Shown one piece after another: positions 13,188-43,871 of a DNA stretch of 43,871 nt. This stretch comes from a virus (lineage: Duplodnaviria > Heunggongvirae > Uroviricota > Caudoviricetes), in the IMG/VR virus record IMGVR_UViG_2537561979_000006; one strand, written 5' to 3'. The notes beneath the pieces were generated by a model, which was not told the origin of the DNA, did not search any database, and saw only the letters and a program-made list of their open reading frames with translations. Position 1 is the first letter of the stretch; each line of letters starts with the position of its first letter. Made by a program: the position numbers and the translations under genes.

Positions 13188-14211
<1,024 letters not shown>

Positions 14212-23188: not shown

Positions 23189-23189
23189 C

Positions 23190-24959: not shown

Positions 24960-25125
24960 GCTTGCCTCGTTTTTGGTGTGACGTGGCAAGGCTAAGGAAA
25001 TAGGGGATTATTCGCGCTAAGTGCCTGTTGTGTCAGATCTAATCAGATCGTAAGCGGTGGCTGATGCGGGTCAGAGTCGGGAAACTAACCCCGACCCGAA
25101 AACCCAACATCAGGACACCTGAAAA

Positions 25126-25980: not shown

Positions 25981-26035
25981 TAACGCGCCGGGTGTGCTGC
26001 CCGGCCTGACCCCTTTTACCCGAACAGGAAAAACC

Positions 26036-27103: not shown

Positions 27104-27106
27104 GCC

Positions 27107-27862
27107 ATGACGAGTCCCGCAGCGCGTCACATGATGCGGGTCTCGGCCTCTGAAACAGCGCAGCGGGCTGCCGTCCCGCTGCGCAATGCAACTGCCTATG
27201 AGCAGATGCTCGTTAAGCTGGCCGCAGACAACCGCACGCTGAAACAAATCAGCTCCAAAGAGCGCAAAGCCGCGAAAAAGCGCGAGCTGCTGCCGTTCTA
27301 CCTGCCGTGGGTCGCTGGCGTCCTAGCAAACGGCAAAGGCGTACAGGATGACATTGTCATGACGGTGATGCTCTGGCGTCTTGATGCTGACGATATCGCT
27401 GGGGCGCTGGAAATCGCCCGTTACGCCATGACCTACGGCCTCACCATGCCGGTCGGTCGCCGTCCGACGCCGTGCCTGCTGGCCGAAGAAGTGGCACTGG
27501 CCGCGCAGCGCCTGCTCACGGCAAAACAGCCGGTCAATCTGGCGAACCTGCTCGACACTATCGCGCTGACTGAACGCGCGGATATGCCCGATATCGTGCG
27601 TGCGAAGCTGCACAAAATCACCGGCTACGTGCTGCGTGATGCGGAGCAACTGCCCGAGGCGCTGGCGCACCTGCAGCGTGCGATCCAGTTAGAAAGCACT
27701 ATCGGTGTGAAAAAGGATATCGAGCAGTTAGAGCGTCAGCTCAGGCCAAAACCCGAACCGGCACCGAAAACCAAAACGACTAAACCGCGCACGCGCAAGC
27801 CTGCCGCCAAACCGGCGGCACGACGCGGGCGTCCACCAAAGGCGGCAAAAGTCGCAGGTTAA
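27107..27862 (+). CDS. M: P2 gpM-like terminase small/endonuclease subunit
   Basis: 251 aa with a basic, lysine/proline-rich C-terminal tail. Confidence 0.8.
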   Translation: MTSPAARHMMRVSASETAQRAAVPLRNATAYEQMLVKLAADNRTLKQISSKERKAAKKRELLPFYLPWVAGVLANGKGVQDDIVMTVMLWRLDADDIAGALEIARYAMTYGLTMPVGRRPTPCLLAEEVALAAQRLLTAKQPVNLANLLDTIALTERADMPDIVRAKLHKITGYVLRDAEQLPEALAHLQRAIQLESTIGVKKDIEQLERQLRPKPEPAPKTKTTKPRTRKPAAKPAARRGRPPKAAKVAG

Positions 27863-27961
27863 ACGAGCGCTCCCCGAGCCGGGCGGCACGCCGGTTAATG
27901 CGGGTATCAATTGCCCTGACTGCGACCGGCGTCCACCGCCCACCCATTACCCGAGGTTGTC

Positions 27962-28467
27962 ATGACGACACTGATTATTGAGCCAAAAAAAGAGCCGCAG
28001 GACGTGCCGGGCGTGGTGATACCGCCACCTGGCGTGAGCGAGCCGGTAATCAAAAACACCCCGTTTTTCCTGACGTTGATCCGAAGCGCGTGCGGGAAGA
28101 AATGCGACTGGAGCAGACCGTTTCCCCCGTGCGCCTGCGCCGGGCGATTAAGACCGCGATCGCGGAGACTAACGCGGAGCTGAGCGACTGGCGCGAAAGT
28201 CAGCTCGATGCCGGTTACGCCACGCTGGCGGAAGTCCCGACCGACAAGCTCGACGGCGAAAGCGTGCGCGTTTTCCACTACTTCAACGCCGTGTGCTCGA
28301 TGACGACGGCCACGCTTTATGAACGTTTTCGCGGCGTGGATGCGACCACCAAAGGGGACAAAAAAGCCGACAGCATCGACAGTACTATCGATGAAATGTG
28401 GCGGGATATGCGCTGGTCTGTGGCGCGCATCCAGGACAAAGCGCGCTGCATTGTGGGGCAAATCTGA
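27962..28467 (+). CDS. L: P2 gpL-like head completion protein, apparently frameshifted
   Basis: The span 27962-28467 is 506 nt, not a multiple of 3. The N-terminal part is in one frame (27962-28183) and the rest in another (to 28467); the switch maps to a T5 run at 28064-28068, and one extra T would give a continuous ~169-aa protein. Confidence 0.7.
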
Positions 28468-28670
28468 TGAAAGCGTATGCGCTGCAGGGCGACACCCTCG
28501 ACGCGATTTGCGCCCGGTACTACGGGCGCACTGAGGGCGTGGTCGAAACCGTCTTAGAGGCTAATCCCGGCCTGTCTGAGCTCGGTGTGATCCTGCCACA
28601 CGGCACGGTAGTAGAATTGCCCGAGACCGAGAGCGCGGCCAGTACCGAAACGGTGAATCTATGGGACTGA
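28467..28670 (+). CDS. X: P2 gpX-like tail protein
   Basis: 67 aa from MKAYALQGDTLDAICARYYG..., same length as P2 X; its start overlaps the L stop (TGATG). Confidence 0.8.
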   Translation: MKAYALQGDTLDAICARYYGRTEGVVETVLEANPGLSELGVILPHGTVVELPETESAASTETVNLWD

Positions 28671-28672
28671 GT

Positions 28673-28882
28673 ATGGAAAAAATCACCACGTTTATCGCCT
28701 ACTGGCTGGCCGTGGGGCTGGCGTATGTCGGGGCAATGTCGCCCGAAAAGATGGCGCTATACGTGGGTGGCGGATGCGCCATTTTTACCGCGCTGACGAA
28801 CTACTGGTTTAAGCGCAAGACGTACCTCTACCTGACATCGCTCGGACTCGATAAAGGGGCTATTCGTGAAATCAATCGTTAA
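28673..28882 (+). CDS. Putative holin in the P2 lysis cassette
   Basis: About 69 aa with two TM segments, directly upstream of the endolysin. Confidence 0.65.
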   Translation: MEKITTFIAYWLAVGLAYVGAMSPEKMALYVGGGCAIFTALTNYWFKRKTYLYLTSLGLDKGAIREINR

Positions 28883-29375
28883 AAAATGCAGTGTGGCCGC
28901 CGTGCTGGCGCTGGCAGCGCTTATGCCTGACTTTCGTCTGCTTAACACCTCGCCCGGGGGGCTGGCGCTGATTGCCGACCTCGAAGGTTGTCGCCTGACG
29001 CCTTACCAGTGCAGCGCGGGAGTGTGGACGTCGGGCATCGGCCACACTGCAGGCGTCGTACCAAAGGGGGAAATCACCGAGCGGCAGGCGGCGGCGAATC
29101 TCGTCGCGGATGTGCTGAACGTCGAGAAACGTCTGGCCGTGTGCGCGCCGGTGAAAATGCCGCCGCATGTTTACGACGCGCTGGTCAGCTTCTCATTCAA
29201 CGTGGGAACCGGTGCGGCCTGCCGGTCGACGCTGGTCTCGTTTATCAAACGCCAGCAATGGCCGCAGGCGTGCGACCAGCTCACCCGCTGGGTTTATGTG
29301 AATGGCGAAGTTAACAAAGGGCTGGAGAATCGCCGCGCGCGCGAGCGTACCTACTGCCTCAGGGGGATTCAATGA
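28866..29375 (+). CDS. K: P2 gpK-like endolysin (lysozyme), possibly SAR-type
   Basis: 169 aa; hydrophobic N-terminus then EGCRLTPYQCSAGVWTSGIGHT catalytic region. Confidence 0.8.
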   Translation: MKSIVKKCSVAAVLALAALMPDFRLLNTSPGGLALIADLEGCRLTPYQCSAGVWTSGIGHTAGVVPKGEITERQAAANLVADVLNVEKRLAVCAPVKMPPHVYDALVSFSFNVGTGAACRSTLVSFIKRQQWPQACDQLTRWVYVNGEVNKGLENRRARERTYCLRGIQ

Positions 29376-29797
29376 AAGTGATGTTGTTTTTACTGGCTGC
29401 GCTGATGGCGGTTGTGCTCTGGCAGCGTCATGAAAACGGCAACCTGACGCGCTCGTTTGAACGGGCGAACAGGGTCGCCACGGAACAAAAAACCGCGATC
29501 GGAATGCTGAAAAATCAGCTTTCCGTTTCGCAGGGCATTGCCAGGCGAAATGAAACCGCGCAGGTCAGTTTACGCGGCGAACTGCTGGCCGCAGGTGCGA
29601 TGGCCGTGCGGCGTGAACAAACCATTACGAGGCTGATAAATGAGAATGAAACCTTACGCCGCTGGTATAGCGCTGAACTGCCTGATGTTGTGCGCAGGCT
29701 GCACATCCGCGCCGGTTGCGCCTCCGCCGGTCATTGTTTACAGCACCTGCCCGAAGGTCAGCTATTGCCCGATGCCTGGAAGCGAGCCAGTAATTAA
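29372..29797 (+). CDS. lysB: LysB-like i-spanin
   Basis: 141 aa with N-terminal TM, in P2 order after K. Confidence 0.75.
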   Translation: MKVMLFLLAALMAVVLWQRHENGNLTRSFERANRVATEQKTAIGMLKNQLSVSQGIARRNETAQVSLRGELLAAGAMAVRREQTITRLINENETLRRWYSAELPDVVRRLHIRAGCASAGHCLQHLPEGQLLPDAWKRASN

Positions 29798-29930
29798 TGG
29801 CGACCTGAGTGCTGATATTCGCAGGCTCGAGCACGCGCTCGCGGCCTGCGCGCTGCAGGTTGAAACCGTCAAAGACTGTCAGGATAAACTCGATGAAGAA
29901 AGCACGCAGCCTGCGCGAAGCGCTGATTAA
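29640..29930 (+). CDS. lysC: LysC-like o-spanin lipoprotein
   Basis: 96 aa overlapping the lysB 3' end in another frame; signal peptide with Cys (LMLCAGC); proline-rich. Confidence 0.65.
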   Translation: MRMKPYAAGIALNCLMLCAGCTSAPVAPPPVIVYSTCPKVSYCPMPGSEPVINGDLSADIRRLEHALAACALQVETVKDCQDKLDEESTQPARSAD

Positions 29931-30360
29931 AGCCGTTCCGCAGCTTGAAACGAACCCCGAAATGATGCGCATCTTTGCCGATGAGGGGAATATCGATGCA
30001 CGTCTCGCGGCCTCGCTGTCGCACGAGAAAATTTATACGCTGAATGTGATCGTGTGTGACTTTGTGGGCGACCCTGATCTGATTTTCGTGCCGGTGGCCG
30101 CATGGCTCAGGGAAAACCAGCCGGATATCTGCACGCTCGATGACGGCCGCATAAAGGGCTACCGTTTCCAGATGGATTTGAACGACGGGGACAGCATCGA
30201 TATCAGTATCAGCCTGCAGCTCACTGAGCGAACCCTCATCAAAGAGGAAAACGGCGCGCTGCACGTAAGCTATGCCCCTGAGCCGCCGCTGCCGGAGCCC
30301 GCCACCCGGCCAAAAGAGCTCTATATCAACGGCGAACTGGTGAGCAAATGGGATGAGTGA
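29893..30360 (+). CDS. R: P2 gpR-like tail completion protein
   Basis: 155 aa from MKKARSLREAL..., same length as P2 R. Confidence 0.8.
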   Translation: MKKARSLREALIKAVPQLETNPEMMRIFADEGNIDARLAASLSHEKIYTLNVIVCDFVGDPDLIFVPVAAWLRENQPDICTLDDGRIKGYRFQMDLNDGDSIDISISLQLTERTLIKEENGALHVSYAPEPPLPEPATRPKELYINGELVSKWDE

Positions 30361-30814
30361 ATTTAAGCCCTTTGACGACAGGCTCGATGGTCTGATTGCT
30401 GCCCTGTCACCGGCAGCGCGCCGGAAGCTGGCCGGTGAGATAGCAAAAGAGCTGCGCAAGGCGCAACAACAACGCATCAAACAGCAAAAAGCCCCGGATG
30501 GCTCGCCGTATCAGGCGCGAAAGCGTCAGCCTCTCAGGGCTAAGAGCGGACGGATTAAACGGGCGATGTTCCAGAAGCTCCGCACCAGCCCCTACATGAG
30601 AGCCACTGGCAGTGAAAATAGTGCTGTTGTGGAGTTTACCGGTAAAGTGCAGCGCATCGCGCGTGTCCACCAGTATGGTCTTGAGGATCGGCCAAACTCC
30701 TACGCCAGTAACGTGCAATATGCAAAACGCCAGCTACTCGGTTTGAGTCGGTACGATAAAGATTTTATTGAAGATATTATCTATGGTTATTTAGATTGCA
30801 ATATGTATTTGTAA
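30353..30814 (+). CDS. S: P2 gpS-like tail completion protein
   Basis: 153 aa; the last ~20 codons are AT-rich, suggesting the moron boundary lies within the 3' end. Confidence 0.8.
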   Translation: MSEFKPFDDRLDGLIAALSPAARRKLAGEIAKELRKAQQQRIKQQKAPDGSPYQARKRQPLRAKSGRIKRAMFQKLRTSPYMRATGSENSAVVEFTGKVQRIARVHQYGLEDRPNSYASNVQYAKRQLLGLSRYDKDFIEDIIYGYLDCNMYL

Positions 30815-31098
30815 ATAAGATTTAAGTGTGTTATGTGTTGTATTTATTGCCAGTAAGTCATAAATGTTCTATCTTCACTATCTAATTGTCTTGGGTGTTT
30901 TTATATTATTTGATTGTGATGGGGTAATGTCCTCATTACACCTTTTTCGATAACATGTTCGGGAGTCTAGGCGTTTGCCGTATTAGAACGATTTTTTTAA
31001 ATTAGCATATCAGATTTATTGTGATAGATATGTTTTTGTTGTATTTTTAACACCCTCAGATTTTTCTTTCCCTTTTTTAAATTTTAACATGTTGTGCT

Positions 31099-32913
31099 TT
31101 GATGAATGGAGTTAGAATGAAGATAATAAATGCTTTATTTTCGACAGTAACGGTTGACCTAAAAAGAAAAACTTTTTATTTGGATTTGTTATTTCTGTTT
31201 GTTTGTGTATGGACGCTAATAGCCTCAGGTTCGGAGGCTCAATATTATCTCTTTAAGTTTATTAATAGTGATAGTTCAACACTCTACGGTAGTGTATTTG
31301 AAGATGCGATTGCGCGTATACCAACCTTTAATGAGTATGTTAAAGGTGCTTATTCATTTTCCGGCAGTTATGGTTTTTTAGCTGCTCTGATTATAGTTGT
31401 TGTGGCTTTATTTTATCAGACTACTGTTCAAATATTTATAGTTAGTATTATTAGTTCGGCGTTTGGGCTAACAGTAACGGATTTCTTGATGTTTGCTTTT
31501 AATGGAACTCTAACGACACAAGCAATGATAGAGTGTGTTATGGCAAACGCTTTGGGGTCACCTATAATTGCAAGCTTTATTGTTTTGCTTTTTTATATAA
31601 AAAAGTTTTTATTTAATGTGTCAAGCATTAATCTGGCTCTCAGGTATATATCAAATTATGTTGTTTACTCAATAATTTGTTTTTTGATTTTGTTTGTTAC
31701 TTACTATATCGTGTGTTTCTTTTATAGACCTACAGCAGTAAATTTTTCAGTCTCTACGTCTGAAGAGTTTTCTGGTGATTACTTCCTAAGTGATAAGAAT
31801 GATGTCTTAAAAGAAGCTAAGGGTTCTTTGTTAAAAGATCGATTTTCGCTATTAAACTCACCAGTAAAGTTAAATGGAACAATAAATGTTTTTGGTGAGA
31901 TCGATTCTATACTCTCAAAATTTAATGCGAGCGATGTCTATACTGTAAGAGTCTTGCCTTTATTAAACTGTATTGATGGGGGGGCAATTAATGCAGCGCT
32001 TGCTGACTATTTAAGTTATGAAGGCGTAAGGGGGTTTTCTATTAAATCTTCAGAATCAATGACTTTGATTACCTTTGGTGATAAGGCGGGATATGTTAAA
32101 AGTAATGATGAGCTCGTTAATATGTTTACTGTCAAAAAAAATAATAAATCGGGGTTTGATATTACTAAAGTTAATGATGGAGTGTTTAGTTATTATCCTT
32201 CTGAATCGAGTGGGAGCATGTATGTCGCTACTGGAGTGACTGATTTTAAAGGTGACCAGAGTAAGAAGGAAGTGAAGTACACGTTGGATGTAAATGGTGT
32301 GAAAAAAATATTCCATGTGGATGTGAGTAGGCTGCGCGCGAAAAATGCAGAAAGAAAATTACAGTGTCAAATTGCTTCATTCACAAGTTCATCCAACGAT
32401 GTATACATTGATGCAGGAGAGGCTGTATATGTTGGCGTACTTATCAAACCTATTCTTAATCAAAAGAATGAATATTTTTCACTTTTTAGCGAACGTGATA
32501 ATAAATTCGACGTCAAAGGGAAATTGCTATATGTACAGGCAAAAAATGTTTCGCGAGAAAACGTAGTAGGGCATTATGTTACAAAGGGATATTTGAACGG
32601 CTTTATTCTTCATTCCTTTGATAAGTTATCAATAGATGGGAAGAATGTTGAATCAAATAAAATGGATAATCTAATGGTGATGGGGGAGGGGATTTATGGG
32701 CATGTATCTGCGGACAATAATTTAGTTATTAGTGGTAAAGCCGATCTCTTCTATAAAAATAGATTGCGGCAAAACAAAACCTTATGGGAAACTTCGAGTG
32801 ATAATACATTAATCTTGGGTGGTATTGGAGCTTTAATGGTTTCCTTGTTGTTGTGGTGTGTAAATAGAATATATTCCTCTTTGAAGAAAAATGAAGTTAT
32901 TAATAGTTTTTAA
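31099..32913 (+). CDS. Polytopic membrane protein of unknown family encoded by an AT-rich moron
   Basis: 598-604 aa (probable start at the ATG at 31117, which has a GGAG RBS); about five N-terminal TM helices, a ~350-aa hydrophilic domain and a C-terminal TM anchor; strongly AT-rich; terminator-like hairpin 13 nt downstream. Confidence 0.75.
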   Translation: MMNGVRMKIINALFSTVTVDLKRKTFYLDLLFLFVCVWTLIASGSEAQYYLFKFINSDSSTLYGSVFEDAIARIPTFNEYVKGAYSFSGSYGFLAALIIVVVALFYQTTVQIFIVSIISSAFGLTVTDFLMFAFNGTLTTQAMIECVMANALGSPIIASFIVLLFYIKKFLFNVSSINLALRYISNYVVYSIICFLILFVTYYIVCFFYRPTAVNFSVSTSEEFSGDYFLSDKNDVLKEAKGSLLKDRFSLLNSPVKLNGTINVFGEIDSILSKFNASDVYTVRVLPLLNCIDGGAINAALADYLSYEGVRGFSIKSSESMTLITFGDKAGYVKSNDELVNMFTVKKNNKSGFDITKVNDGVFSYYPSESSGSMYVATGVTDFKGDQSKKEVKYTLDVNGVKKIFHVDVSRLRAKNAERKLQCQIASFTSSSNDVYIDAGEAVYVGVLIKPILNQKNEYFSLFSERDNKFDVKGKLLYVQAKNVSRENVVGHYVTKGYLNGFILHSFDKLSIDGKNVESNKMDNLMVMGEGIYGHVSADNNLVISGKADLFYKNRLRQNKTLWETSSDNTLILGGIGALMVSLLLWCVNRIYSSLKKNEVINSF

Positions 32914-32925
32914 TTGATTCAGGAA

Positions 32926-32946
32926 GGCGGGTTCGTCCGCCTTTCT
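32926..32946 (+). terminator. Terminator-like hairpin after the moron gene
   Basis: GGCGG-gttcgt-CCGCC followed by TTTCT; the T-tract is weak. Confidence 0.45.
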
Positions 32947-33033
32947 AATAATCTCAATTCCTTGCCTGTTGTTCCATTCCTGACAAAACTTCGCTCGATT
33001 GCCGATGAATTTACCAAGCGGCATCCTTTCCCC

Positions 33034-33675
33034 ATGAATAATCTAAATTCTCTGCAGGAAATCGCACGCGCGATCCGCAACCTTATCCGCACCGGCATCG
33101 TGACCGACGTCGACCACGACGAGGGGCTGTGTCGTGTCCAGACCGGCGGCATGCAAACCACCTGGCTGAACTGGCTGGCCTGTCGCGCCGGTCGCTCGCG
33201 CGTATGGTGGGCTCCGTCCGTCGGCGAGCAGGTGCTTGTACTTGCTGTCGGCGGCGAGCTCGATACGGCCTTTGTGCTGCCCGGCATTTTCTCTGACGAC
33301 AATCCCGCGCCGTCAGCCTCCCCTGATGCGTTTCACATGTCCTTTCCTGACGGGGCGGTTATCGAGTATGAGCCCGAAAACGGCGCGCTCACCGTGTCAG
33401 GTATCAAAACCGCTGACGTCACCGCGTCGGATTCCATTACGGCCACCGTACCGGTGGTGCTGGTGAAAGCGTCGAGTCGTATCACGCTCGATACGCCGGA
33501 GGTGGTTTGCACCAACAAGCTTACGACCGGCACGCTCGAAGTGCTGAAAGGCGGGAAGATGAGCGGGAGCATCGAGCACACCGGCGGGATACTGAAATCA
33601 AACGGCGTGCAGGTGGATAACCACGCGCACGGCAACGTACAGAGCGGCGGAAGCTGGACAAAGGGGACGCAATGA
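33034..33675 (+). CDS. V: P2 gpV-like baseplate spike protein
   Basis: About 213 aa from MNNLNSLQEIARAIRNLIRTG...; conserved spike core. Confidence 0.85.
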   Translation: MNNLNSLQEIARAIRNLIRTGIVTDVDHDEGLCRVQTGGMQTTWLNWLACRAGRSRVWWAPSVGEQVLVLAVGGELDTAFVLPGIFSDDNPAPSASPDAFHMSFPDGAVIEYEPENGALTVSGIKTADVTASDSITATVPVVLVKASSRITLDTPEVVCTNKLTTGTLEVLKGGKMSGSIEHTGGILKSNGVQVDNHAHGNVQSGGSWTKGTQ

Positions 33676-34022
33676 CGGTGCGTTATCTGGGAATGAACAG
33701 CCGGACCGGCCTCAGTATCTCTGAGGTTGAGCACATCCGGCAAAGCGTGCGCGACATTCTGGTCACGCCGGTTGGGTCGCGTGTCATGCGCCGTGAATAC
33801 GGCTCGCTCCTGTCGCAGATGATTGACCAGCCGCAGACCCCGGCGCTGCGCCTGCAGATTATGGCCGCGTGCTATTCCGCGATCCAGAAGTGGGAGCCAC
33901 GCGTAGACCTCTCGACCATTACCTTTGAACGGTCGGAGACCGACGGCGGGCTGTATGTCGACATCACCGGCACCCGCTCGACCGGCGGCCAGCCATTTTC
34001 CATCACCATTCCACTGAGTTAA
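33672..34022 (+). CDS. W: P2 gpW-like baseplate wedge protein
   Basis: 116 aa against 115 for P2 W; order V-W-J-I. Confidence 0.85.
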   Translation: MTVRYLGMNSRTGLSISEVEHIRQSVRDILVTPVGSRVMRREYGSLLSQMIDQPQTPALRLQIMAACYSAIQKWEPRVDLSTITFERSETDGGLYVDITGTRSTGGQPFSITIPLS

Positions 34023-34028
34023 ATCACT

Positions 34029-34937
34029 ATGGCAACCGTTGACCTGAATCAGTTACCCGTTCCCGATGTGGTGGAAGAACTGGACTTTGAAACCATTCTT
34101 GCCGAACGCATTGCGACGCTAATTTCACTCTATCCTGAAGACCAGCAGGAGGCCATTGCCCGGACGCTCACACTTGAATCAGAGCCGATTGTTAAGCTGT
34201 TACAGGAAAACGCCTATCGTGAAGTTATCTGGCGTCAGCGTGTGAACGAAGCCGCGCAGGCGGTAACGCTGGCCTATTCAACCGGTCGCGACCTTGACGT
34301 TGTGGCCGGGAACAATAATACCGGACGCCTGACCATTACCCCTGCTGATGACACCACCATACCGCCAACGCCTGCCGTTATGGAATCAGATGCTGACCTG
34401 CGACTGCGCACACAACAAGCTTTTGAAGGATTAAGTGTGGCGGGTCCGGTTGGCGCTTATGAGTATCACGGTCGAAGCGCTGACGGACGGGTCGCCGACG
34501 TCTCTGTCGAAAGCCCGTCGCCCGCCTGCGTGACGATTTCCGTGTTATCCCGTGAGGGTGACGGCACCGCGAGCCCTGAGTTACTGGCAATCGTTGAAAA
34601 AGCACTGAACGCCGAAGATGTGCGCCCGTTGGCTGACCGGGTGACCGTCCAGTCAGCCGAAATTGTGCCGTACCAGATTGACGCGACGATATACGTTTAC
34701 CCCGGTCCCGAATCTGAACCCATCAGGCAGGCCTCAGAGCAGAAGCTGCAGAGTTATATCAGCGCGCAGCACCGCCTCGGGCGTGATATCCGGCTGTCAG
34801 CCATTTACGCGGTGCTGCATGTTGAGGGGGTACAGCGTGTCGAGCTGGCATCACCACAGGCCGATATTGTGCTGAGCAAGTCGCAGGCGTCGAACTGTAC
34901 CGAGTACCAGATAACTATCGGGGGCTCGGATGAGTGA
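34029..34937 (+). CDS. J: P2 gpJ-like baseplate protein
   Basis: 302 aa, same length as P2 J. Confidence 0.85.
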   Translation: MATVDLNQLPVPDVVEELDFETILAERIATLISLYPEDQQEAIARTLTLESEPIVKLLQENAYREVIWRQRVNEAAQAVTLAYSTGRDLDVVAGNNNTGRLTITPADDTTIPPTPAVMESDADLRLRTQQAFEGLSVAGPVGAYEYHGRSADGRVADVSVESPSPACVTISVLSREGDGTASPELLAIVEKALNAEDVRPLADRVTVQSAEIVPYQIDATIYVYPGPESEPIRQASEQKLQSYISAQHRLGRDIRLSAIYAVLHVEGVQRVELASPQADIVLSKSQASNCTEYQITIGGSDE

Positions 34938-35538
34938 CCGGCTGTTACCCGTTGGCTCGTCGCCGCTGGAGGTTGCCGCCGCTGCCGCGCTCTCTGAGAT
35001 TCAGCGCGTGCCGGTAACGCTCCGCACTCTGTGGAACTGGCGCACCTGCCCGGTAAACCTGCTGCCGTATCTGGCGTGGGCGCTGTCGGTCGACCGGTGG
35101 GATGAGAAGTGGCCGGAGGCGACAAAGCGCAGCGTCTGCGCATCTTCGTTTTTCGTCCATCAGCACAAAGGCACCATCAGCGCATTGCGTCGGGTGGTTG
35201 AGCCGCTCGGCTTTCTGATTGAGGTGCGCGAGTGGTGGCAGCTCAACGAGGCGCCAGGCACTTTCCGCCTCGTTGTCGGCGTGCTCGACAGCGGCATCAC
35301 TGATGAAATGTATCAGGAGCTCGAGCGCCTGATTGATGACGCCAAACCGGCAAGCCGCCACCTCACCGGGCTGGCTATCAGCCTGAGTGCCACCGGCGAG
35401 CTGTATGTCGGCGCGGGATGCTACGACGGCGACGCGCTCACCGTTTACCCCTACACCCCCGAGGAAATTGTCGTCGGCGGTGAATATTACCCGGCCTCGG
35501 CCATCCATTTGATTGATAACCTGAGAGTGAACGCATGA
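34930..35538 (+). CDS. I: P2 gpI-like baseplate protein
   Basis: 202 aa, in order after J. Confidence 0.8.
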   Translation: MSDRLLPVGSSPLEVAAAAALSEIQRVPVTLRTLWNWRTCPVNLLPYLAWALSVDRWDEKWPEATKRSVCASSFFVHQHKGTISALRRVVEPLGFLIEVREWWQLNEAPGTFRLVVGVLDSGITDEMYQELERLIDDAKPASRHLTGLAISLSATGELYVGAGCYDGDALTVYPYTPEEIVVGGEYYPASAIHLIDNLRVNA

Positions 35539-36521
35539 CCGCAAAATATTTAGCCATTCTGACCAATCAGGGCGCGGCGCGGCTGGCGAACGCGGCGGCA
35601 CTCGGTACCAGACTAAACCTGACGCAGATGGCCGTCGGTGATGCGAATGGTACGCTGCCTACACCTGACCCGGCGCAGACGAAGCTCATTAACCAGAAGC
35701 GCATCGCGCCGCTGAACCTGCTGAACGTTGATCCGGCCAATACCAGCCAGATTATCGCGGAACAAATTATTCCCGAGAATGAGGGCGGTTTCTGGATCCG
35801 AGAGATTGGTCTCTACGATGATGAGGGGATTCTGATTGCCGTGGCAAACTGCCCGGAGACCTACAAACCGCAACTGCAGGAGGGAAGCGGCCGCACGCAG
35901 ACCATTCGCATGATTCTGATTGTGTCGAGCACGTCGGCCGTTACCCTGAAAATCGACCCGTCGGTGGTGCTGGCAACGCGGCAGTATGTCGAGGATAAGG
36001 TTATCGAGGTGAAAGCCTATGCCGATAATCTGCTGGCCGCACACCTCGCCGCTGCAGACCCGCACACGCAATACCTCAAAACGGCGGATATTGATAAATA
36101 CATTCCGGTCGGTTTTCCGCTGCCGTGGCCGCAGGCAACACCGCCGGAGGGCTGGCTTAAATGCAACGGCGCGGTTTTTGACAAGGTGAAATATCCAAAG
36201 CTGGCTGTCGCTTATCCATCCGGTAAATTGCCTGACTTGCGCGGTGAGTTTTTGCGAGGGTGGGATGACGGGCGCGGGATAGACAATGGACGAGCGCTAT
36301 TATCCGCTCAGGTCGGCTCTGGAGTTGGGATGTTCCTCGGTGGTCATTCAGATGGGACCGCATATATCCCATTGAGTGATTTCGACAGCGTTGTCGACAA
36401 CAGCCCGTCATGGTCACATGTAAATACCGCAGGGCTGATTTCTTCAATTGGTGGTCAACGGTCATCATTCGGCGCTCGCCCACGCAACATTGCATTTAAC
36501 TACATCGTGAGGGCGGCATAA
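35535..36521 (+). CDS. H: Tail fibre protein (gpH position), short chimeric form
   Basis: 328 aa against ~669 for P2 H; the C-terminus ends ...[14 protein letters not shown], the conserved ending shared with lambdoid side tail fibres. Confidence 0.75.
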   Translation: MTAKYLAILTNQGAARLANAAALGTRLNLTQMAVGDANGTLPTPDPAQTKLINQKRIAPLNLLNVDPANTSQIIAEQIIPENEGGFWIREIGLYDDEGILIAVANCPETYKPQLQEGSGRTQTIRMILIVSSTSAVTLKIDPSVVLATRQYVEDKVIEVKAYADNLLAAHLAAADPHTQYLKTADIDKYIPVGFPLPWPQATPPEGWLKCNGAVFDKVKYPKLAVAYPSGKLPDLRGEFLRGWDDGRGIDNGRALLSAQVGSGVGMFLGGHSDGTAYIPLSDFDSVVDNSPSWSHVNTAGLISSIGGQRSSFGARPRNIAFNYIVRAA

Positions 36522-37117
36522 TGGCAAAAGCGACACTTAACAAACAGGGCATTACCACAAAAGCCGGTGATATGACGGTTTATAACTATGACGGTGAAAC
36601 CCGCGAATATCTGACGTCCTCTGTCGAGTTTCTGGCGCTGGGCGTGGGGATTCCTGCTAATTCCTGCACCGATGCACCGGTCGAAAAAAAGGAGGGTTTC
36701 GCGGTGTGCCGAGCGGCCAGTCTTGACGGGTGGGAGTATGTCGCAGACCATCGCGGTGAGACGGTTTATGACACGGAAACCGGTCAGCCGGTCAACATTA
36801 CCGCACCCGGTGACTATGCCCCCGGTGTAACTACGTTTGCACCGTCTACCCCCTGTGACCGCTGGAACGGTAGCGAATGGGTCACGGATAAGGACGCGCA
36901 GAAAAACGGTCAGGTTAAGGAGGCAGAACAGAAAAAATCCGCGCTGCTGAATAAGGCACAAAGCACTATCAGCCTGTGGCAGACTGAGCTGCAGCTCGGC
37001 ATCATCAGCGACGATGACAAGGCCAGCCTGATTGCGTGGATGAAATACATTCAGTCGCTGAACGTGATCGACACCTCTGCTGCGCCGTATATTGAGTGGC
37101 CGGAAAGACCTGAATAA
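36521..37117 (+). CDS. G: Tail fibre assembly chaperone (gpG/Tfa family)
   Basis: 198 aa; conserved Tfa C-terminus (DDDKASLIAWMKYIQSLNVIDTSAAPYIEWPERPE). Confidence 0.8.
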   Translation: MAKATLNKQGITTKAGDMTVYNYDGETREYLTSSVEFLALGVGIPANSCTDAPVEKKEGFAVCRAASLDGWEYVADHRGETVYDTETGQPVNITAPGDYAPGVTTFAPSTPCDRWNGSEWVTDKDAQKNGQVKEAEQKKSALLNKAQSTISLWQTELQLGIISDDDKASLIAWMKYIQSLNVIDTSAAPYIEWPERPE

Positions 37118-37122
37118 ACGAA

Positions 37123-37146
37123 GCCCTCCACCCGGAGGGCTTTTTT
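37123..37146 (+). terminator. Rho-independent terminator after G
   Basis: GCCCTCC-accc-GGAGGGC followed by TTTTTT. Confidence 0.7.
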
Positions 37147-37240
37147 GTATGTTGTGTTATCCCTCCACCAACGGCATTGCATCGCGCCTGCGCGACACAC
37201 AACAGAAAATAGTCGCACCCCTAACCACGGAGTTAAACAG

Positions 37241-38434
37241 ATGGGCGACTATCATCACGGCGTCGAGGTCATCGAGATTAATGATGGCACGCGCACCATT
37301 TCCACCGTCTCGACGGCCATCATCGGCATGGTCTGCACGGCCAGCGATGCTGACGCAAAGACATTCCCCCTGAACGAGCCGGTGCTGATTACCAGCGTGC
37401 AAACGGCGATCGGTAAGGCCGGTAAAAAAGGCACGCTGGCAAAATCCCTGCAGGCCATTGCCGACCAGTGCAAGCCGGTCATTGTGGTGGTGCGCGTTCC
37501 CGAAGGTGTCGACGACCCGTCAGACCCGGAAGCGGCGCAGAAAGAAACCATTTCCAACATCATCGGCACGACCGACGAAAACGGCAAATACACCGGGCTG
37601 AAAGCGCTGTTAACAGCGAAAACCGTCACCGGTGTTAAGCCGCGCATTCTCGGCGTGCCGGGCGTGGATACGCAGGAAGTGGCGACCGCTCTTGCGTCGA
37701 CCTGCCAGAGCCTGCGCGCGTTCGGCTATGTGAGCGCGTGGGGCTGCAAGACCATTTCCGACGCCATTAAATACCGTGAGAACTTCAGCCAGCGCGAGCT
37801 CATGGTCATTCACCCTGATTTTCTGGCATGGGACACCACGGCGAACGAAACCGATATTGCATGGGCGACCGCCCGCGCGCTCGGCCTGCGCGCCAGAATC
37901 GACCAGGATACCGGCTGGCACAAAACGCTGTCCAACGTCGGCGTGAATGGCGTCACCGGCGTCAGCGCCTCGGTCTCATGGGATTTGCAGGAGCAGGCCA
38001 CCGACGCCAACCTGCTGAATCAGGCCGGGGTGACAACGCTCATCCGCAACGATGGCTTTAAATTCTGGGGTAACCGAACCTGCTCGGACGATCCATTATT
38101 CGTGTTTGAAAACTACACCCGCACGGCGCAGGTGCTGGCCGACACGATGGCGGAAGCGCACGCGTGGGCGATGGATAAGCCCGTTTCTGCAACGCTCATC
38201 CGCGACATCGTCGCCGGTATCAATGCCAAATTCCGCGAGCTGAAAAACAACGGCTATATCGTTGACGGCTCCTGCTGGTACGACCCGGAGTCAAACAGCG
38301 TGGAAACCCTCAAAGCCGGGAAACTGTATATCGATTACGACTACACCCCCGTCCCGCCGCTGGAAAACCTGACCCTGCGCCAGCGCATCACCGATACCTA
38401 TCTGGCAGACCTGTCAGACTCGGTCAACAGCTAA
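37241..38434 (+). CDS. FI: P2 gpFI-like tail sheath protein
   Basis: About 397 aa from MGDYHHGVEVIEINDGTRTIS...; 396 in P2. Confidence 0.9.
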   Translation: MGDYHHGVEVIEINDGTRTISTVSTAIIGMVCTASDADAKTFPLNEPVLITSVQTAIGKAGKKGTLAKSLQAIADQCKPVIVVVRVPEGVDDPSDPEAAQKETISNIIGTTDENGKYTGLKALLTAKTVTGVKPRILGVPGVDTQEVATALASTCQSLRAFGYVSAWGCKTISDAIKYRENFSQRELMVIHPDFLAWDTTANETDIAWATARALGLRARIDQDTGWHKTLSNVGVNGVTGVSASVSWDLQEQATDANLLNQAGVTTLIRNDGFKFWGNRTCSDDPLFVFENYTRTAQVLADTMAEAHAWAMDKPVSATLIRDIVAGINAKFRELKNNGYIVDGSCWYDPESNSVETLKAGKLYIDYDYTPVPPLENLTLRQRITDTYLADLSDSVNS

Positions 38435-38446
38435 GGAGCTCAGAGC

Positions 38447-38965
38447 ATGGCGTTACCACGCAAACTGAAATACCTGAACATGTTTAACGACGGTCTCAGC
38501 TACATGGGCGTCGTTGAATCCGTCACCCTGCCAAAGCTGACCCGCAAGCTTGAGAAATATCGCGGCGGCGGGATGCCGGGCTCGGTGTCTATTGACCTCG
38601 GCCTCGACGACGACGCGCTGTCGCTTGAGTGGACGCTGGGCGGCCTGCCTGACGTCGCGCTGTGGGCGCAGTATGCGTCACCGGGTGCCGACAGCGTGCC
38701 GCTGCGCTTCACCGGCTCATTCCAGCGCGATGATACCGGCGCAATTTCCGCCGTTGAGGTGGTCATGCGTGGCCGTCACAAGGAGTACGACGGCGGCGAG
38801 AACAAACAGGGCGAAAGCGGCACGACCAAAATCGCGACCGAGTGCTCGTATTACCAGCTCACGATTGACGGCAAAGAGGTCATCGAGATTGACGTCGTCA
38901 ACATGGTGATGAAAGTCGACGGCGTTGACCGTCTCGCTGAGCACCGCCGGGCGATTGGCCTGTAA
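38447..38965 (+). CDS. FII: P2 gpFII-like tail tube protein
   Basis: 172 aa, same length as P2 FII. Confidence 0.9.
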   Translation: MALPRKLKYLNMFNDGLSYMGVVESVTLPKLTRKLEKYRGGGMPGSVSIDLGLDDDALSLEWTLGGLPDVALWAQYASPGADSVPLRFTGSFQRDDTGAISAVEVVMRGRHKEYDGGENKQGESGTTKIATECSYYQLTIDGKEVIEIDVVNMVMKVDGVDRLAEHRRAIGL

Positions 38966-39025
38966 CCCGTTAACCGGTCAGCCAGGCTGGCCGGTCACTT
39001 ACTCACATTCAAAGAGAGCAACATC

Positions 39026-39334
39026 ATGGAAAACATCAACGAAACCGCCACCATCGAAACCGAAAACCCAAACATTGTGATCCTCGATAATCCAATCATG
39101 CGCGGTGAGCAAAAAATCGAACAGGTGACCGTGTCCAAACCCAACGCCGGTACTCTGCGCGGTGTGAGTCTGGCCTCGCTGGCAAACTCTGACGTCGATG
39201 CGCTGATTAAGGTGCTGCCGCGCATGACGTACCCGGCGCTGACCGAGCCCGAGGTCATGCGTCTGGAAGCATCAGACCTGATTTTGTTCGCCGGTAAGGT
39301 GGTCGGTTTTTTGTCGCCATCTTCGGCTCGCTGA
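39026..39334 (+). CDS. E: P2 gpE-like tail assembly chaperone
   Basis: 102 aa; carries a slippery T6G tract near its 3' end. Confidence 0.8.
   Translation: MENINETATIETENPNIVILDNPIMRGEQKIEQVTVSKPNAGTLRGVSLASLANSDVDALIKVLPRMTYPALTEPEVMRLEASDLILFAGKVVGFLSPSSAR
39307..39313 (+). promoter_or_regulatory. Slippery site for the programmed -1 frameshift giving E+E'
   Basis: T TTT TTG heptamer in X XXY YYZ register; the -1 frame stays open from here to a stop at 39486-39488, overlapping the T start, as in the P2 E/E' arrangement. Confidence 0.65.
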
Positions 39335-39478
39335 CGTTCCCGGACAACCTTTCGGTCGATGACCTGATGGCGGATATCGCGGTGATATTTCACTGGCCGC
39401 CATCAGAGCTGAATTCCCTGAGCGTGACCGAGCTCATCACATGGCGCGAAAAGGCGCTGCAGCGAAGCGGACACCACC

Positions 39479-41926
39479 ATGAGCAATAACGTCAGGATTG
39501 AGGTACTGCTGAACGCAGTAGACCGGGCAAGCCGACCGCTCAAAGCTATCCAGACTGCCAGCAAGACCCTTGCTGGCGATATCCGCACTTCTCAGAACAG
39601 CCTGCGCGATCTGAATGCGCAGGCTGGCCGAATTGACGGATTCAGGAAAGCGAGCGCACAGCTTGCCGTGACAGGCCAGTCGCTTAACAAGGCGAAACAG
39701 GAAGCCGCCGCGCTGGCCGTCCAGTTTAAAAACACGCAGAACCCTACAACCGCGCAGGCGCGCGCGATGGAGGCGGCAAAGAAATCCGCCGCTGACCTGC
39801 AGCTCAAATACAACAGCCTCAGGCAGTCGGTACAGCGCCAGCGCACCGAGCTCGCGCAGGCCGGGATTAACACCCGTACTCTCTCGGCGGATGAGCGCCG
39901 CCTGAAAACCAGCATCAGTGAGACGACCGCGCAACTTAACCGGCAGCGCGAGGCACTGGCGCGGGTCAGTCAACAGCAGGCGCGACTCAGTCGCGTTAAA
40001 GAGCGTTATCAGGCCGGTAAATCCCTTGCCGGAGGCGCTGCAGCGGCAGGCGCGGCGGGCGTCGGTATCGCCACTGCGGGAACAATGGCCGGAGTGAAAT
40101 TACTCTCGCCCGGTTATGAGTTTGCACAGAAAAACTCTGAGCTGCAGGCCGTGCTCGGCGTTGATAAACAGTCACCCGAAATGGAGGCGCTGCGCAAACA
40201 GGCGCGCCAGCTCGGGGATAATACCGCTGCGTCTGCAGATGATGCGGCGAGCGCGCAGATTATCATTGCGAAAAGCGGCGGGGATGCCGCAGCGATTCAG
40301 GCGGCGACGCCGGTCACGCTGAATATGGCGCTGTCTAACCGTCGCTCGATGGAAGAAAACGCCGCGCTGCTGACGGGTATGAAATCCGCGTTTCAGATGT
40401 CAAACGACCAGATCGCACACATCGGCGACGTGCTGTCGATGACCATGAACAAAACGGCTGCTGACTTTGACGGGCTGAGCGACGCGCTGACGTATGCTGC
40501 GCCGGTGGCAAAAAATGCCGGGGTCAGTATCGAGCAGACCGCCGCAATGGTCGGCGCGCTCCATGACGCCAAAATCACCGGCTCGATGGCGGGGACGGGC
40601 AGCCGTGCCGTCCTGAGTCGCCTGCAGGCTCCGACCGGTAAGGCATACGAGGCTATCAAAGAGCTCGGCGTTAAAACGTCTGACAGCAAGGGCAACACGC
40701 GCCCGATATTCGCCATTCTGAAAGAAATGCAGCGCAGTTTTGAGAAAAATAATCTCGGAACAAGCCAGAAAGGCGAGTACATGAAAACCATCTTTGGTGA
40801 GGAAGCCAGCTCGGCGGCGGCGGTACTGATGACCGCTGCCTCAAGCGGCAAGCTCGACCAGCTCACGGCGGCGTTTAAAGCCTCGGACGGGAAAACCGCT
40901 GAGCTCGTTAAAATTATGCAGGACAACCTCGGCGGTGACTTCAAAGAATTCCAGTCAGCCTATGAGGCCGTCGGTACTGACCTGTTTGACCAGCAGGAGG
41001 GCTCACTGCGAAAGCTCACCCAGACCGCCACGAAATATGTGTTAAAGCTCGACGGCTGGATCCAGAAAAATCAGGGGCTGGCGCAAACCATCGGCATCAT
41101 CGCAGGCGGTGCACTGGCAATTATTGGCATCCTCGGGGCAATTGGTCTCGTTGCCTGGCCGGTTATTACCGGCATTAATATGTTAATAGCCGGTGCATCG
41201 CTGCTAGGAACGATTTTCTCGGTGGTGGGTGGTGCCATTATGGCCGTGCTCGGGGCGCTTACCTGGCCGATAGTGGCTATTGGCGTTGCCATCGTCGCCG
41301 GTGCGCTGCTTATCCGCAAATACTGGGAGCCCATAAGCGCGTTTTTCTCAGGCGTAATGGAGGGGCTAAAGCAGGCTTTTGCCCCTGTAGTGGAACTATT
41401 CGAACCGTTAAAGCCGGTTTTTGACTGGCTGGGTGACAAACTGAAAGCGGCATGGCAGTGGTTTAAAGACCTGATAGCCCCGGTTAAGTCGACGCAGGAG
41501 ACGCTCGACAGCTGCAAAAATGCGGGTGTGATGTTCGGTAAGATGCTGGCCGAAGCGCTGATGTTACCGCTCAAAAGCTTTAATACATTGCGCACCGGCG
41601 TTAACTGGCTGTTGGAAAAGCTCGGGGTTATCAATAAAGAATCGAGCGACCTTGACCAGAAGGCCGCTAAAGCCAGTGCCGCCACCGGCTCGCAAAATGG
41701 GGCTTATATTCCGGCAACCTCAGCATATGGCGGTTATCAGGCATATCAGCCGGTAACAGCACCCACTGGTAAGACTTACGTCGACCAGAGCAAGCCTGAA
41801 TATAACATCAACCTGAATGGTGGCATCGCGCCGGGCAGCGACCTTGACCGGCAACTCCGCGAGGCTGTCGATAGATTCGACCGTGAAAACCGTGCGCGTC
41901 AGCGCTCAAGTATGCGCCATGACTGA
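39479..41926 (+). CDS. T: P2 gpT-like tail tape measure protein
   Basis: 815 aa, same length as P2 T; coiled-coil N-terminus and Gly/Ala-rich hydrophobic C-terminal region. Confidence 0.9.
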
Positions 41927-42058
41927 GGGGGATATTGGTGCTCATACGCACTCCGTTGCGATTGGTTCACATGGACACACCATCACCGTTAACGCTGCTG
42001 GTAACGCGGAAAACACCGTCAAAACATCGCATTTAACTATATTGTGAGGCTTGCATAA
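41919..42058 (+). pseudogene. 3' remnant of a side-tail-fibre gene, frameshifted
   Basis: Encodes ...[29 protein letters not shown]; the conserved ending [11 protein letters not shown]-stop is present but in another frame; an A4 run at 42021-42024 would need one more A. There is no upstream stf body: the frame runs back into the T gene. Confidence 0.6.
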
Positions 42059-42633
42059 TGGCATTCAGAATGAGTGAACAACCACGGACCATAAAAATTT
42101 ATAATCTGCTGGCCGGAACTAATGAATTTATTGGTGAAGGTGATGCATATATTCCGCCTCATACAGGTCTGCCAGCAAACAGTACCGATATTGCACCGCC
42201 AGATATTCCGGCTGGCTTCGTGGCTGTTTTCAACAGTGATGAGTCATCGTGGCATCTCGTTGAAGATCATCGGGGTAAAACGGTTTATGACGTGGCTTCC
42301 GGCGACGCGTTATTTATTTCTGAACTCGGTCCGTTACCGGAAAATGTTACCTGGTTATCGCCGGAAGGGGAGTTTCAGAAGTGGAACGGCACAGCCTGGG
42401 TGAAGGATACGGAAGCAGAAAAACTGTTCCGGATCCGGGAGGCGGAAGAAACAAAAAACAACCTGATGCAGGTAGCCAGTGAGCATATTGCGCCGCTTCA
42501 GGATGCTGCAGATCTGGAAATTGCAACGGAGGAAGAAATCTCGTTGCTGGAAGCATGGAAAAAGTATCGGGTATTGCTGAACCGTGTTGATACGTCAACT
42601 GCACAGGATATTGAATGGCCAGCACTGCCGTAG
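42058..42633 (+). CDS. tfa: Tail fibre assembly protein (Tfa)
   Basis: 191 aa; conserved Tfa C-terminus ([33 protein letters not shown]); its start overlaps the stf stop (TAATG). Confidence 0.8.
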
Positions 42634-42730
42634 GGTAAAACATATAAATTCTATAATTAGATGTATCTTTCCATTTACGGCAAGGAAGGGGGCTTGGAAG
42701 ACGTAAAGCATCTCACACCGAGATTATTTT

Positions 42731-43321
42731 TTATATGTCAGGTGTCTGAAGTTTTGCTTTGGCTCTTAAAATGGTTTGCCGCGAGGTTTTGAATTCCCGG
42801 GCAATGGCACTTATACTTACACCTGACTTAATTCGTTCGAATACCGCCTGTTTCTGTTCTTCATTTAACACAGGTGGTCGACCAAAACGTTTCCCTGCGC
42901 CGCGGGCTCTTACTATCCCGGAATGAGTGCGTTCAAGTAAAAGGTCTCGTTCAAATTCAGCGACTGCTGAAATTACTTGCATCATCATTTTTCCTGTTGG
43001 ACTGGTCAGGTCAATGCCCCCCAATGCTAAGCAATGCACTCTGATACCTGTTTCGGTCAGTTGTTCCACTGTTTTCCTGATATCCATTGCATTACAACCA
43101 AGGCGATCCAGTTTTGTCACAATCAATTGATCACCACATTTCAGGCGAGCAAGCAACCGGTTAAAACCAGGACGCTCACTGGTTGCTGCTGAGCCGCTAA
43201 TGTGTTCTTCGATTATTTGCTGAGGTTTGATTTTAAAACCTGCACTTTCGATTTCCCGGCGTTGATTTTCGGTGGTCTGATCCAGCGTTGATATCCGACA
43301 GTAAGCAAAAATTTGAGACAT
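42731..43321 (-). CDS. pin: Serine recombinase / DNA invertase (Pin/Gin/Hin family)
   Basis: 196 aa; N-terminal catalytic-serine region (YCRISTLDQ) and C-terminal HTH; adjacent to the stf/tfa segment. Confidence 0.85.
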
Positions 43322-43637
43322 AGTGAGACTCTATACGAAATTGGTGTTCATATCATAATGCATCTCAGAAAATAATTATGATTATTTTTGTGCATATTTG
43401 TATGTACACGTTCGAAAATAAACGAATGCGTATGCAACCCCGTAATTTTGGTGAGACCCAAAATCGATTTTGTGAAAAATGGCTTTAACTCGGTTTGTTT
43501 TTCGAGTTCCGGGCGGACTCAAGGAAGAAGAATAGTGTTGCGTGTTATTTTAACCAGATTTCAAGTTGTTTGGTCGTGGAAAAGTGGAGCAAAATGTTGT
43601 TAAAGTGGAAAAATGATAAAAAAGTAAGTTTATTATA

Positions 43638-43871
43638 TTACATTTTACCATTTAAATTTTGGTTGTCTTTAAGAACTGATATCGCTGTTTGTAATAATTC
43701 TTTGTTATCCAGCCATGATTTTTTCTTTATGTTTCCTTCAATGTAATCAAGCAATGTTCTGGTATTGATAGGTCTTCCCTGTTTTGCTACTTCCACTACA
43801 GCATCCCCTAGGATAATTCTTACTTCAGGAAGCTGCGCAGGGAACCACTTTAGGGTGTCTTTTGATTTCAT
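43638..43871 (-). CDS. YdfK/YnaE-like small protein
   Basis: Complete 77-aa ORF whose start codon is the last three bases of the window; this gene neighbours pin in Qin-type prophages. Confidence 0.55.
   Translation of the reverse strand: MKSKDTLKWFPAQLPEVRIILGDAVVEVAKQGRPINTRTLLDYIEGNIKKKSWLDNKELLQTAISVLKDNQNLNGKM

Follow-up and report, generated by a model that had tools for sequence, protein, structure and literature searches.

A P2-type prophage seated in Qin and deprived of its right end (U, D, ogr, attR), very probably through one deletion just after T

The stretch of DNA analysed here (the window, 43,871 nucleotides in all) carries a P2-type prophage bordered on both sides by DNA of the cryptic lambdoid prophage Qin of Escherichia coli, and the features on which the reading of the locus turns are the following.

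14991-15013, plus strand: core of the prophage's attL, with 15013 as the last position identical to Qin; its 23 bp are shared with the attR of the intact relative L004.
15093-16103, minus strand: integrase, 336 aa, the exact protein occurring in many assemblies (Pfam Int_N and Phage_integrase).
16200-16499, minus strand: P2-type C immunity repressor, 99 aa, opposite cox (phrog_147 transcriptional regulator, E = 5e-40).
16620-16898, plus strand: Cox, 92 aa (Pfam PF10743 Phage_Cox, E = 1e-41).
20834-21763, plus strand: DUF4238 cargo gene, an anti-phage candidate, retained (PADLOC DUF4238-Pers, 718 bits; Pfam DUF4238).
22163-41926, both strands: late region, retained; assigned by gene calling and Pfam matches in the identical loci L004, L005 and L024.
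28063-28068, plus strand: a T run one base shorter than in relatives (T5 instead of T6), which puts the head-completion gene L out of frame.
39479-41926, plus strand: tape-measure gene T, complete, 815 aa (Pfam PhageMin_Tail).
41933-41934, plus strand: deletion junction, a TA dinucleotide common to both parental ends (window compared with L004:12417-12497 and L004:19197-19277).
41933-42058, plus strand: 3' remnant of Qin stfQ, 41 codons and a stop (the last 127 nt), by identity to K-12 Qin.
42058-42633, plus strand: tfaQ, the Qin tail-fibre assembly gene (Caudo_TAP; K-12 match).
42731-43321, minus strand: pinQ, the Qin serine invertase, which looks intact (Resolvase and HTH_7; K-12 match).
43638-43871, minus strand: ydfK of Qin, with a cold-shock-protein annotation (K-12 match).

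Positions 1-15013 match E. coli Qin at 99.9-100% identity as far as ymcF/ynfR, and the attL core with which this identity ends is a terminator-like hairpin, AAGGCTCCTTCGGGAGCCTTTTT, lying in or after the small gene ynfR, downstream of ymcF/ynfQ; two further host sites have a matching hairpin next to prophages with the same integrase. The tyrosine integrase, C and Cox together make up a P2-type immunity and integration module. The DUF4238 gene has replication gene A on one side and portal gene Q on the other, and thereby occupies the cos-adjacent anti-phage hotspot described for P2-like phages (Rousset et al. 2022, PMC9122126). The late region beyond it opens with the minus-strand genes Q and P and continues with O, N, M, L and X, the lysis cassette, R and S; a cargo gene for a 598-aa protein comes next, and V, W, J, I, H, G, FI, FII, E/E' and T complete it. 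As far as T, no gene of the P2 order is missing and the Pfam families are those expected, U and D being absent. The 598-aa cargo gene is a low-GC, membrane-protein gene whose product had no match in Pfam, PADLOC or PHROGs.

This arrangement is that of P2 and 186, which have the same order of int, C, cox, replication gene A, cos-adjacent cargo and Q P / O N M L X, with the same continuation through the lysis genes and R S V W J I H G FI FII E E' T; T has the same length (815 aa) as in the P2 comparison of an earlier note on this DNA, and the immunity is of the P2 type (C, Cox). The element differs from both phages in its attB, which lies inside Qin, and in its lack of U, D, ogr and attR. Its nucleotide identity to 186 and to P2-like prophages of E. 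coli is only ~79-81%, the closest known phage being Enterobacter phage ENT4 at 87%, and its GC content is 53% overall and 55-61% across most late genes.

The earlier note, made from the letters of the window, had described a prophage cut off right after an intact T, devoid of U, D and ogr and continued by an stf remnant, tfa and pin, the stf frame extending into T with no stf body in between; the comparisons reported here bear this description out and show the last three to belong to Qin. Homology of the 186/P2 type ends at 41934 and Qin identity begins at 41933 (ends of the BLAST high-scoring pairs), whereby alignment across the T/stfQ junction places the breakpoint at 41933-41934, with TA shared: the sequence switches from prophage to Qin stfQ 8 bases past the T stop codon, the left side being the spacer between T and U, which includes the ribosome-binding site of U (GAGGGGG). 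The T protein is residue for residue that of relatives retaining U, D and ogr. From the junction onwards, positions 41933-43871 are 99.95% identical to Qin of K-12 MG1655 and of O15_8X (over 1,940 bp), with matching annotation, and hold stfQ, tfaQ, pinQ and ydfK in K-12 order and sequence. The frame of the stf remnant runs back into T as an ORF at 41817-42047. The last 11 codons of the remnant are out of frame, an A5 run having lost 1 nt (42021-42024); A5 is kept in L006 and L010, which have the same junction. When U, D, Ogr and DRT2 of an intact relative served as tblastn queries, none of them was detected in the window (best E = 0.11), nor in L005 (a contig that continues ~8 kb past the right end of the window), L006 or L010. 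The possibility raised by the earlier note that U, D and ogr might lie rearranged just past the window accordingly found no support in the further sequence of L005.

What the window lacks is found at the same site in draft E. coli genomes. L004, L007, L008 and L009 carry an identical T followed by U, D, an Ogr_Delta gene, a reverse transcriptase gene and then Qin genes, the intact order being T-U-D-ogr-(RT-12 ncRNA + DRT2 reverse transcriptase)-attR-ynfR/ynfN-gnsB-ydfO-ynfO-nohA-stfQ'-tfaQ-pinQ. The defence system of these relatives consists of two features.

L004:14720-14854: RT-12 ncRNA (Rfam RT-12, 87 bits against a gathering score of 44).
L004:14871-16160: DRT2 reverse transcriptase, full length (PADLOC Drt2, 689 bits).

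It thereby reproduces the architecture of the Klebsiella pneumoniae DRT2 system, in which an ncRNA lies upstream of an RT-only protein of ~425 aa (Wilkinson et al. 2024, PMC12039810): in the relatives the structured ncRNA stands directly upstream of such a protein, and the window has neither. In contrast to the cos-adjacent hotspot, the DRT2 system of the relatives lies between ogr and attR, and it is deleted in the window. Only these intact relatives possess attR, at ~L004:16373-16395, inside the segment that is missing here; the right junction of L004 shares the 23-bp core with the left junction of the window, which has attL alone.

By alignment, the window equals L004:1-12456 joined to L004:19235-21174, and L004:12457-19234 is missing, that is, 6,778 bp, a length that could differ slightly in the true ancestor since L004 is a proxy for it (its Qin right arm is 98.35% identical to that of the window). 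The deleted segment comprises U, D, ogr, the DRT2 system (ncRNA and reverse transcriptase), attR and ~2.9 kb of Qin with ynfR/ynfN, gnsB, ydfO, ynfO, nohA and the 5' part of the stfQ pseudogene. As the observation is structural, BLAST identity rather than an estimate of chance was taken as the relevant test. A three-way comparison of the window with the two stretches of L004 revealed a microhomology of only 2 bp (TA) at the deletion ends; no likeness to an invertase crossover site is seen at either of them, and the two findings together point to a simple illegitimate deletion. We therefore regard it as very probable that a P2-type prophage residing in the ynfR hairpin of Qin lost its right end through one illegitimate deletion of ~6.8 kb. 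A temperate phage of the P2 type would have integrated by site-specific recombination in the ynfR terminator hairpin, inside Qin, and a later, single illegitimate event would have fused the sequence 8 nt past the T stop to the final 127 nt of stfQ. Given that intact copies exist, the element descends from a full P2-like member and is itself incomplete.

The consequences of this loss for the element can be stated with varying firmness. It has kept attL, int, C, cox, a replication gene, the DUF4238 candidate and most late genes, and it has lost U, D, ogr and attR, in agreement with the earlier verdict that it is defective. The accompanying claim that its late operons look intact stands for most genes and fails for gene L, whose frameshift at 28063-28068 may be a homopolymer sequencing error. 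TGTTGTG motifs resembling the annotated B-protein sites of 186 occur in the three late intergenic regions, ahead of the P/O, V and FI operons, and fit activator-dependent late operons; a scan for the exact P2 activator motif, TGT-N12-ACA, returned 9 matches against 9.45 expected, none of them in the late promoter regions. The window encodes no zinc-finger activator of the Ogr/B/Delta family, which the intact relatives do possess (PF04606), and the late genes would probably not be switched on without ogr. Nor should tails be assembled without U and D, whose absence likewise excludes tailocin production, and in a lysogen the element would be expected to express only its immunity and cargo genes. 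As the deletion took attR, excision by Int and Cox should be impossible and the element would be locked in the chromosome. For the same reason its mobilisation by a helper, entertained in the earlier note, is unlikely, and a helper could at most complement gene expression. P2 itself is known to be non-inducible and, in view of the P2-type C/Cox immunity, mitomycin C would be a poor test of the element and induction is not expected to work if the phage behaves like P2. The element is a grounded, defective, non-excisable prophage remnant.

Two readings would grant the element more activity than this. The first is that U, D and ogr have been relocated, or that a second P2-like prophage supplies their equivalents, rendering the element functional in trans. 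P2/186-like prophages reside in many E. coli genomes (2,290 of 5,426 complete E. coli genomes match part of the prophage at ~80% identity), and the activators Ogr, B and delta cross-activate one another's late promoters. We nevertheless consider this unlikely: nothing like U, D or Ogr occurs in the window or in the next 8 kb, the parental arrangement puts the three genes exactly in the missing segment and, with attR gone, even a complemented element could not excise as a packageable circle. The second reading, to which we assign only a slender chance, is that the truncated prophage is kept as a domesticated, Ogr-responsive island rather than as mere debris. It appeals to the retained C immunity, the DUF4238 candidate, the 598-aa gene and the Ogr-dependent late operons with their lysis cassette, which a superinfecting heteroimmune P2-like phage or P4-like satellite bringing Ogr or delta might turn on in trans; the deletion would then perhaps have been favoured for removing a potentially toxic DRT2 along with the excision site. 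Were this so, the island could interfere with the invader through defective tails, titration of parts or mistimed lysis, or could donate capsid and tail parts to it.

As regards the mechanism of the loss, the proximity of an invertase calls for consideration of whether PinQ itself made the deletion, by site-specific recombination at crossover-like sites with a 2-bp core. The pinQ gene lies 0.8 kb away and is apparently intact, invertase crossover sites are frequent in tail-fibre genes (gene K of phage 186 has an annotated one), and the overlap at the junction is exactly 2 bp, the stagger length of serine recombinases. Against this, a scan of both parental breakpoints, the window, L003 and L004 for the 186 site and for the core motif yielded nothing: the best match to the 186 crossover site mismatches at 14 of 26 positions at either breakpoint, which is the random level, and none of the window, L003 and L004 contains the motif AAACCNNGGTTT. 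Pin-family invertases, moreover, strongly favour inversion between inverted sites over deletion, and we judge a PinQ-mediated event very unlikely in comparison with a simple illegitimate deletion. A fibre switch of the Pin/Gin/Cin kind, with two inverted 26-bp crossover sites flanking alternative fibre C-termini and tfa genes beside the invertase gene, was not encountered in the window either, which holds only one tfa and one stf remnant.

The junction recurs in 4 of the 24 contigs examined, and three of these loci are covered in full. L005 is 100% identical to the window with pinQ-ydfK intact, L006 has the T-stfQ junction and differs in sequence from inside pinQ onwards, and L010 has the junction with an IS1 after pinQ. 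Scaffold GL872107.1 of assembly GCA_000190975.1 matches the window without a difference across the 14.4 kb that were compared. Its sharing by four contigs with three different downstream structures bears on whether the junction is a chimeric or collapsed contig that fuses the prophage to Qin, a doubt also voiced in the earlier note. Three homopolymer contractions in the window (28063, 31072 and 42021), absent in relatives, do suggest error-prone sequencing, and no complete RefSeq E. coli genome has the junction. Yet L005, L006 and L010 come from different assemblies that differ downstream, and the joined sequences share only 2 bp and offer no repeat for an assembler to collapse, so that an artefact is highly improbable and this explanation is largely refuted. 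The notion that the stf remnant, tfa and pin form an invertible tail-fibre cassette of the P2-like phage itself, for which one might invoke the Gin/Cin-type invertible fibre segments of Mu, P1 and some P2-like phages and an 11-residue terminal motif of the P2-like H protein resembling the stf end, is almost certainly wrong and already refuted by the intact relatives, where attR and 2.9 kb of Qin genes lie between the phage and this segment, which moreover has a GC content of 43% against 53% for the prophage and continues its Qin identity into ydfK, ydfJ and ydfI in K-12 order, the phage having an H and a G of its own at 35535-37117.

The loss of the right end through an illegitimate deletion is ordinary prophage decay and calls for no new mechanism. 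The cryptic K-12 prophages Qin, Rac and e14 have likewise lost essential morphogenesis and regulatory genes and one att site by deletion and become fixed in the chromosome, and Qin itself displays a truncated stfQ and a lone nohA. In contrast to these, the decay of the present element is very recent: its remaining 27 kb differ from the intact copies at a handful of positions, the late region shows 3-5 differences in 12-20 kb from intact relatives, and intact, singly deleted and doubly or multiply deleted forms (L026) coexist among sequenced isolates. Neither the junction nor the phage at more than ~81% identity is present among the 5,426 complete RefSeq genomes of E. coli, and a 40-mer spanning the junction had no match in species-representative genomes or JGI metagenomes, thereby suggesting that the allele is confined to a few E. 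coli isolates. The finding matters mainly for annotation, in that stf, tfa and pin after T are host Qin DNA and not genes of a P2-like phage, and in that the element is a grounded remnant. Beyond this, the coexisting intact and deleted copies of one nearly identical prophage document the early stage of such decay in a clean and datable form, the loss of a DRT2 system included.

The P2-type prophage occupies positions 15014-41934 of the window and lies between two segments of the cryptic lambdoid prophage Qin, of which the left (1-15013) is 99.9-100% identical to E. coli chromosomes, e.g. that of O15_8X and, where K-12 shares the sequence, that of K-12, and the right (41933-43871; stfQ 3' end, tfaQ, pinQ, ydfK) is 99.95% identical to the Qin right arm. 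GC content is 53% over the prophage (55-61% over most late genes) and 43-44% in the Qin flanks.

Features of the window
1-15013: Qin left stretch, from the Qin integrase to dicA, relBE, hokD, cspB/F, essD, rrrQ, rzpQ, cspI, ymcF/ynfQ
20-1315, minus: 431-aa integrase, Qin left arm
1659-3788, minus: 709-aa ORF, O15_8X counterpart annotated as 3'-5' exonuclease
6940-8253: ISNCY-family transposase gene, Qin left arm
15093-16103, minus: int, first gene of the prophage
After int: C repressor (99 aa) and Cox
After C/Cox: replication gene A
20834-21763, plus: DUF4238 cargo gene (PADLOC DUF4238-Pers, 718 bits), in the P2 hotspot next to cos, flanked by replication gene A and portal gene Q
Late genes, in order: Q, P, O, N, M, L, X, lysis genes, R, S, 598-aa cargo gene, V, W, J, I, H, G, FI, FII, E/E', T
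31117-32913, plus: 598-aa ORF, 34% GC, between tail genes S and V
39479-41926: T, 815 aa, complete
41933-42058: stfQ remnant, final 41 codons and stop
42058-42633: tfaQ
42731-43321, minus: pinQ
Beyond pinQ: ydfK

The Qin left arm at 1-8300 is unlike K-12/MG1655 and matches strains such as O15_8X. The prophage itself shares just 79-81% identity with phage 186 and with E. coli P2-like prophages, reaches 87% with Enterobacter phage ENT4, and is absent from all 5,426 complete E. coli genomes searched; an Enterobacter vonholyi genome carries the intact T-U junction sequence.

The earlier note had described a complete T followed by an stf remnant, tfa and pin, with the stf frame running back into T, and this is confirmed by the ORFs and by the alignment ends: homology of the P2/186 type stops at 41934, Qin identity begins at 41933, and the remnant frame extends back across the T 3' end as an ORF (41817-42047) whose fibre body is missing. 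The T protein is identical to that of relatives intact downstream. U, D and Ogr, likewise reported missing, were not found by tblastn in the window (best E = 0.11) or in L005, L006 and L010, three loci where T abuts tfaQ in the same way; nor do they lie just beyond the window, as judged from the L005 scaffold, which is 100% identical to it and reaches about 8 kb past its right end.

A search of public assemblies for the identical T protein recovered this prophage, always at this site, in two forms, and the intact one (L004, L007, L008 and L009) continues 3' of T as follows.

Gene order 3' of T in the intact relatives
U (154 aa), D (389 aa), Ogr_Delta protein (73 aa), RT gene (429 aa)
3' of the RT gene: ynfR/ynfN, gnsB, ydfO, ynfO, nohA, stfQ fragment, tfaQ, pinQ, ydfK
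L004:14720-16160: DRT2 system, between ogr and attR, absent from the window

Since the window aligns to L004:1-12456 and L004:19235-21174, it lacks L004:12457-19234 (6,778 bp), and the breakpoints (slash) read as follows.

Parental ends and product
Left parent: ...TGAGGGGGATA/AAGCATG (U start)
Right parent: ...ACTGTCGGTA/TTGGTGCTC
Product (window junction): ...GGGGGATATTGGTG

Both breakpoints are unlike an invertase crossover site, the best match to the annotated phage 186 site having 14/26 mismatches and the core motif AAACCNNGGTTT occurring nowhere in the sequences scanned, and the three-way comparison leaves TA as the sole sequence common to both parental ends. Such near-zero shared sequence, together with breakpoints unlike crossover sites, indicates that the event is an illegitimate, virtually homology-free deletion, and both Pin-mediated and homologous routes are rejected. 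An assembly artefact is rejected as well, given that a 2-bp overlap leaves an assembler nothing to collapse across and that the junction, which 4 of the 24 longest contigs examined carry (intact T-U stands in the remaining 20), is followed by different sequence in three fully read loci: intact pinQ-ydfK in L005, divergence from inside pinQ in L006 and IS1 after pinQ in L010. The junction 40-mer was not found in species-representative genomes or JGI metagenomes. All copies differ at 8 positions at most over 12.4 kb, and integration and deletion must therefore both be recent.

Lost with the segment were U and D (PHROG tail proteins), ogr, attR, a DRT2 defence system and about 2.9 kb of Qin DNA (ynfR/ynfN, gnsB, ydfO, ynfO, nohA and the stfQ pseudogene's 5' portion). 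The 429-aa RT gives a full-length PADLOC Drt2 match (689 bits), and directly upstream lies an Rfam RT-12 ncRNA (87 bits; gathering score 44), the same layout as in K. pneumoniae DRT2, where the ncRNA precedes a 425-aa RT (PMC12039810). Its place between ogr and attR differs from the cos-adjacent hotspot of P2-like phages (Rousset et al., PMC9122126), where the DUF4238 gene is still present in the truncated element. The 598-aa ORF, conserved in all copies, has no match in Pfam, PADLOC or PHROG; long hydrophobic stretches, judged by eye, suggest a membrane protein, and the ORF could represent an uncharacterised moron or a defence gene.

Against the uninterrupted Qin site of L003 (attB, AAAATGAAGGCTCCTTCGGGAGCTTTTTTGC), the left junction of the window and its right-hand counterpart in L004 overlap by 23 bp, so that the core of attL falls at window 14991-15013, while attR falls at about L004:16373-16395, within the segment deleted later. 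This core is a terminator-like hairpin. Prophages whose integrase protein is 100% identical sit at three separate places in the chromosome, Qin included, the others being one next to a LysE-family gene and one next to a chemoreceptor/sucrose locus, and a matching hairpin, AAAAAGGCTCC-N4-GGAGCC, is common to all three sites (window 14991-15013; about 11090-11115 in the further loci L013, L017 and L021). On this sequence comparison, the Qin ynfR terminator is a look-alike attB and entry into Qin an ordinary site-specific integration.

Three indels, all homopolymer contractions, are specific to the window (28063-28068, 31072, 42021-42024) and may be sequencing errors: relative to L024 and L025, relatives compared at gene L, a T6-to-T5 contraction at 28063-28068 frameshifts this head-completion gene, and an A5-to-A4 contraction at 42021-42024 frameshifts the final 11 codons of the stfQ remnant, the A5 being kept in 2 other carriers of the junction. 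A further copy, L026 (GCA_018023135.1), keeps U-D-ogr and has two different deletions, one joining Qin ydfU-region DNA to the phage early region just before the DUF4238 gene and the other fusing DNA beyond M with the end of FI; independent decay is thus under way in several lineages.

As to function, TGTTGTG(T) motifs resembling the annotated B-protein (activator) sites of phage 186 precede the P/O, V and FI late operons (motifs at 25030-25050, 32966-32990, 37148-37172), which very probably need an Ogr-family activator whose gene the element now lacks. From P2/186 biology, tails or tailocins would be impossible without U and D, and excision by Int/Cox would be impossible without attR; a helper could at best activate and complement the late genes, leaving the genome unmobilised. 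The core interpretation of a prophage defective for want of U, D and ogr is hence upheld, and two suggestions made alongside it are unlikely to hold: mobilisation by a helper, with attR deleted, and induction by mitomycin C, which is not expected under P2-type C/Cox immunity. As no plus-strand terminator was found between T and tfaQ, transcription of the F operon, if switched on in trans, would continue into tfaQ. C and the DUF4238 gene are presumably still expressed from the element, as perhaps is the 598-aa cargo gene. The feature is a well-explained recent case of ordinary prophage decay.
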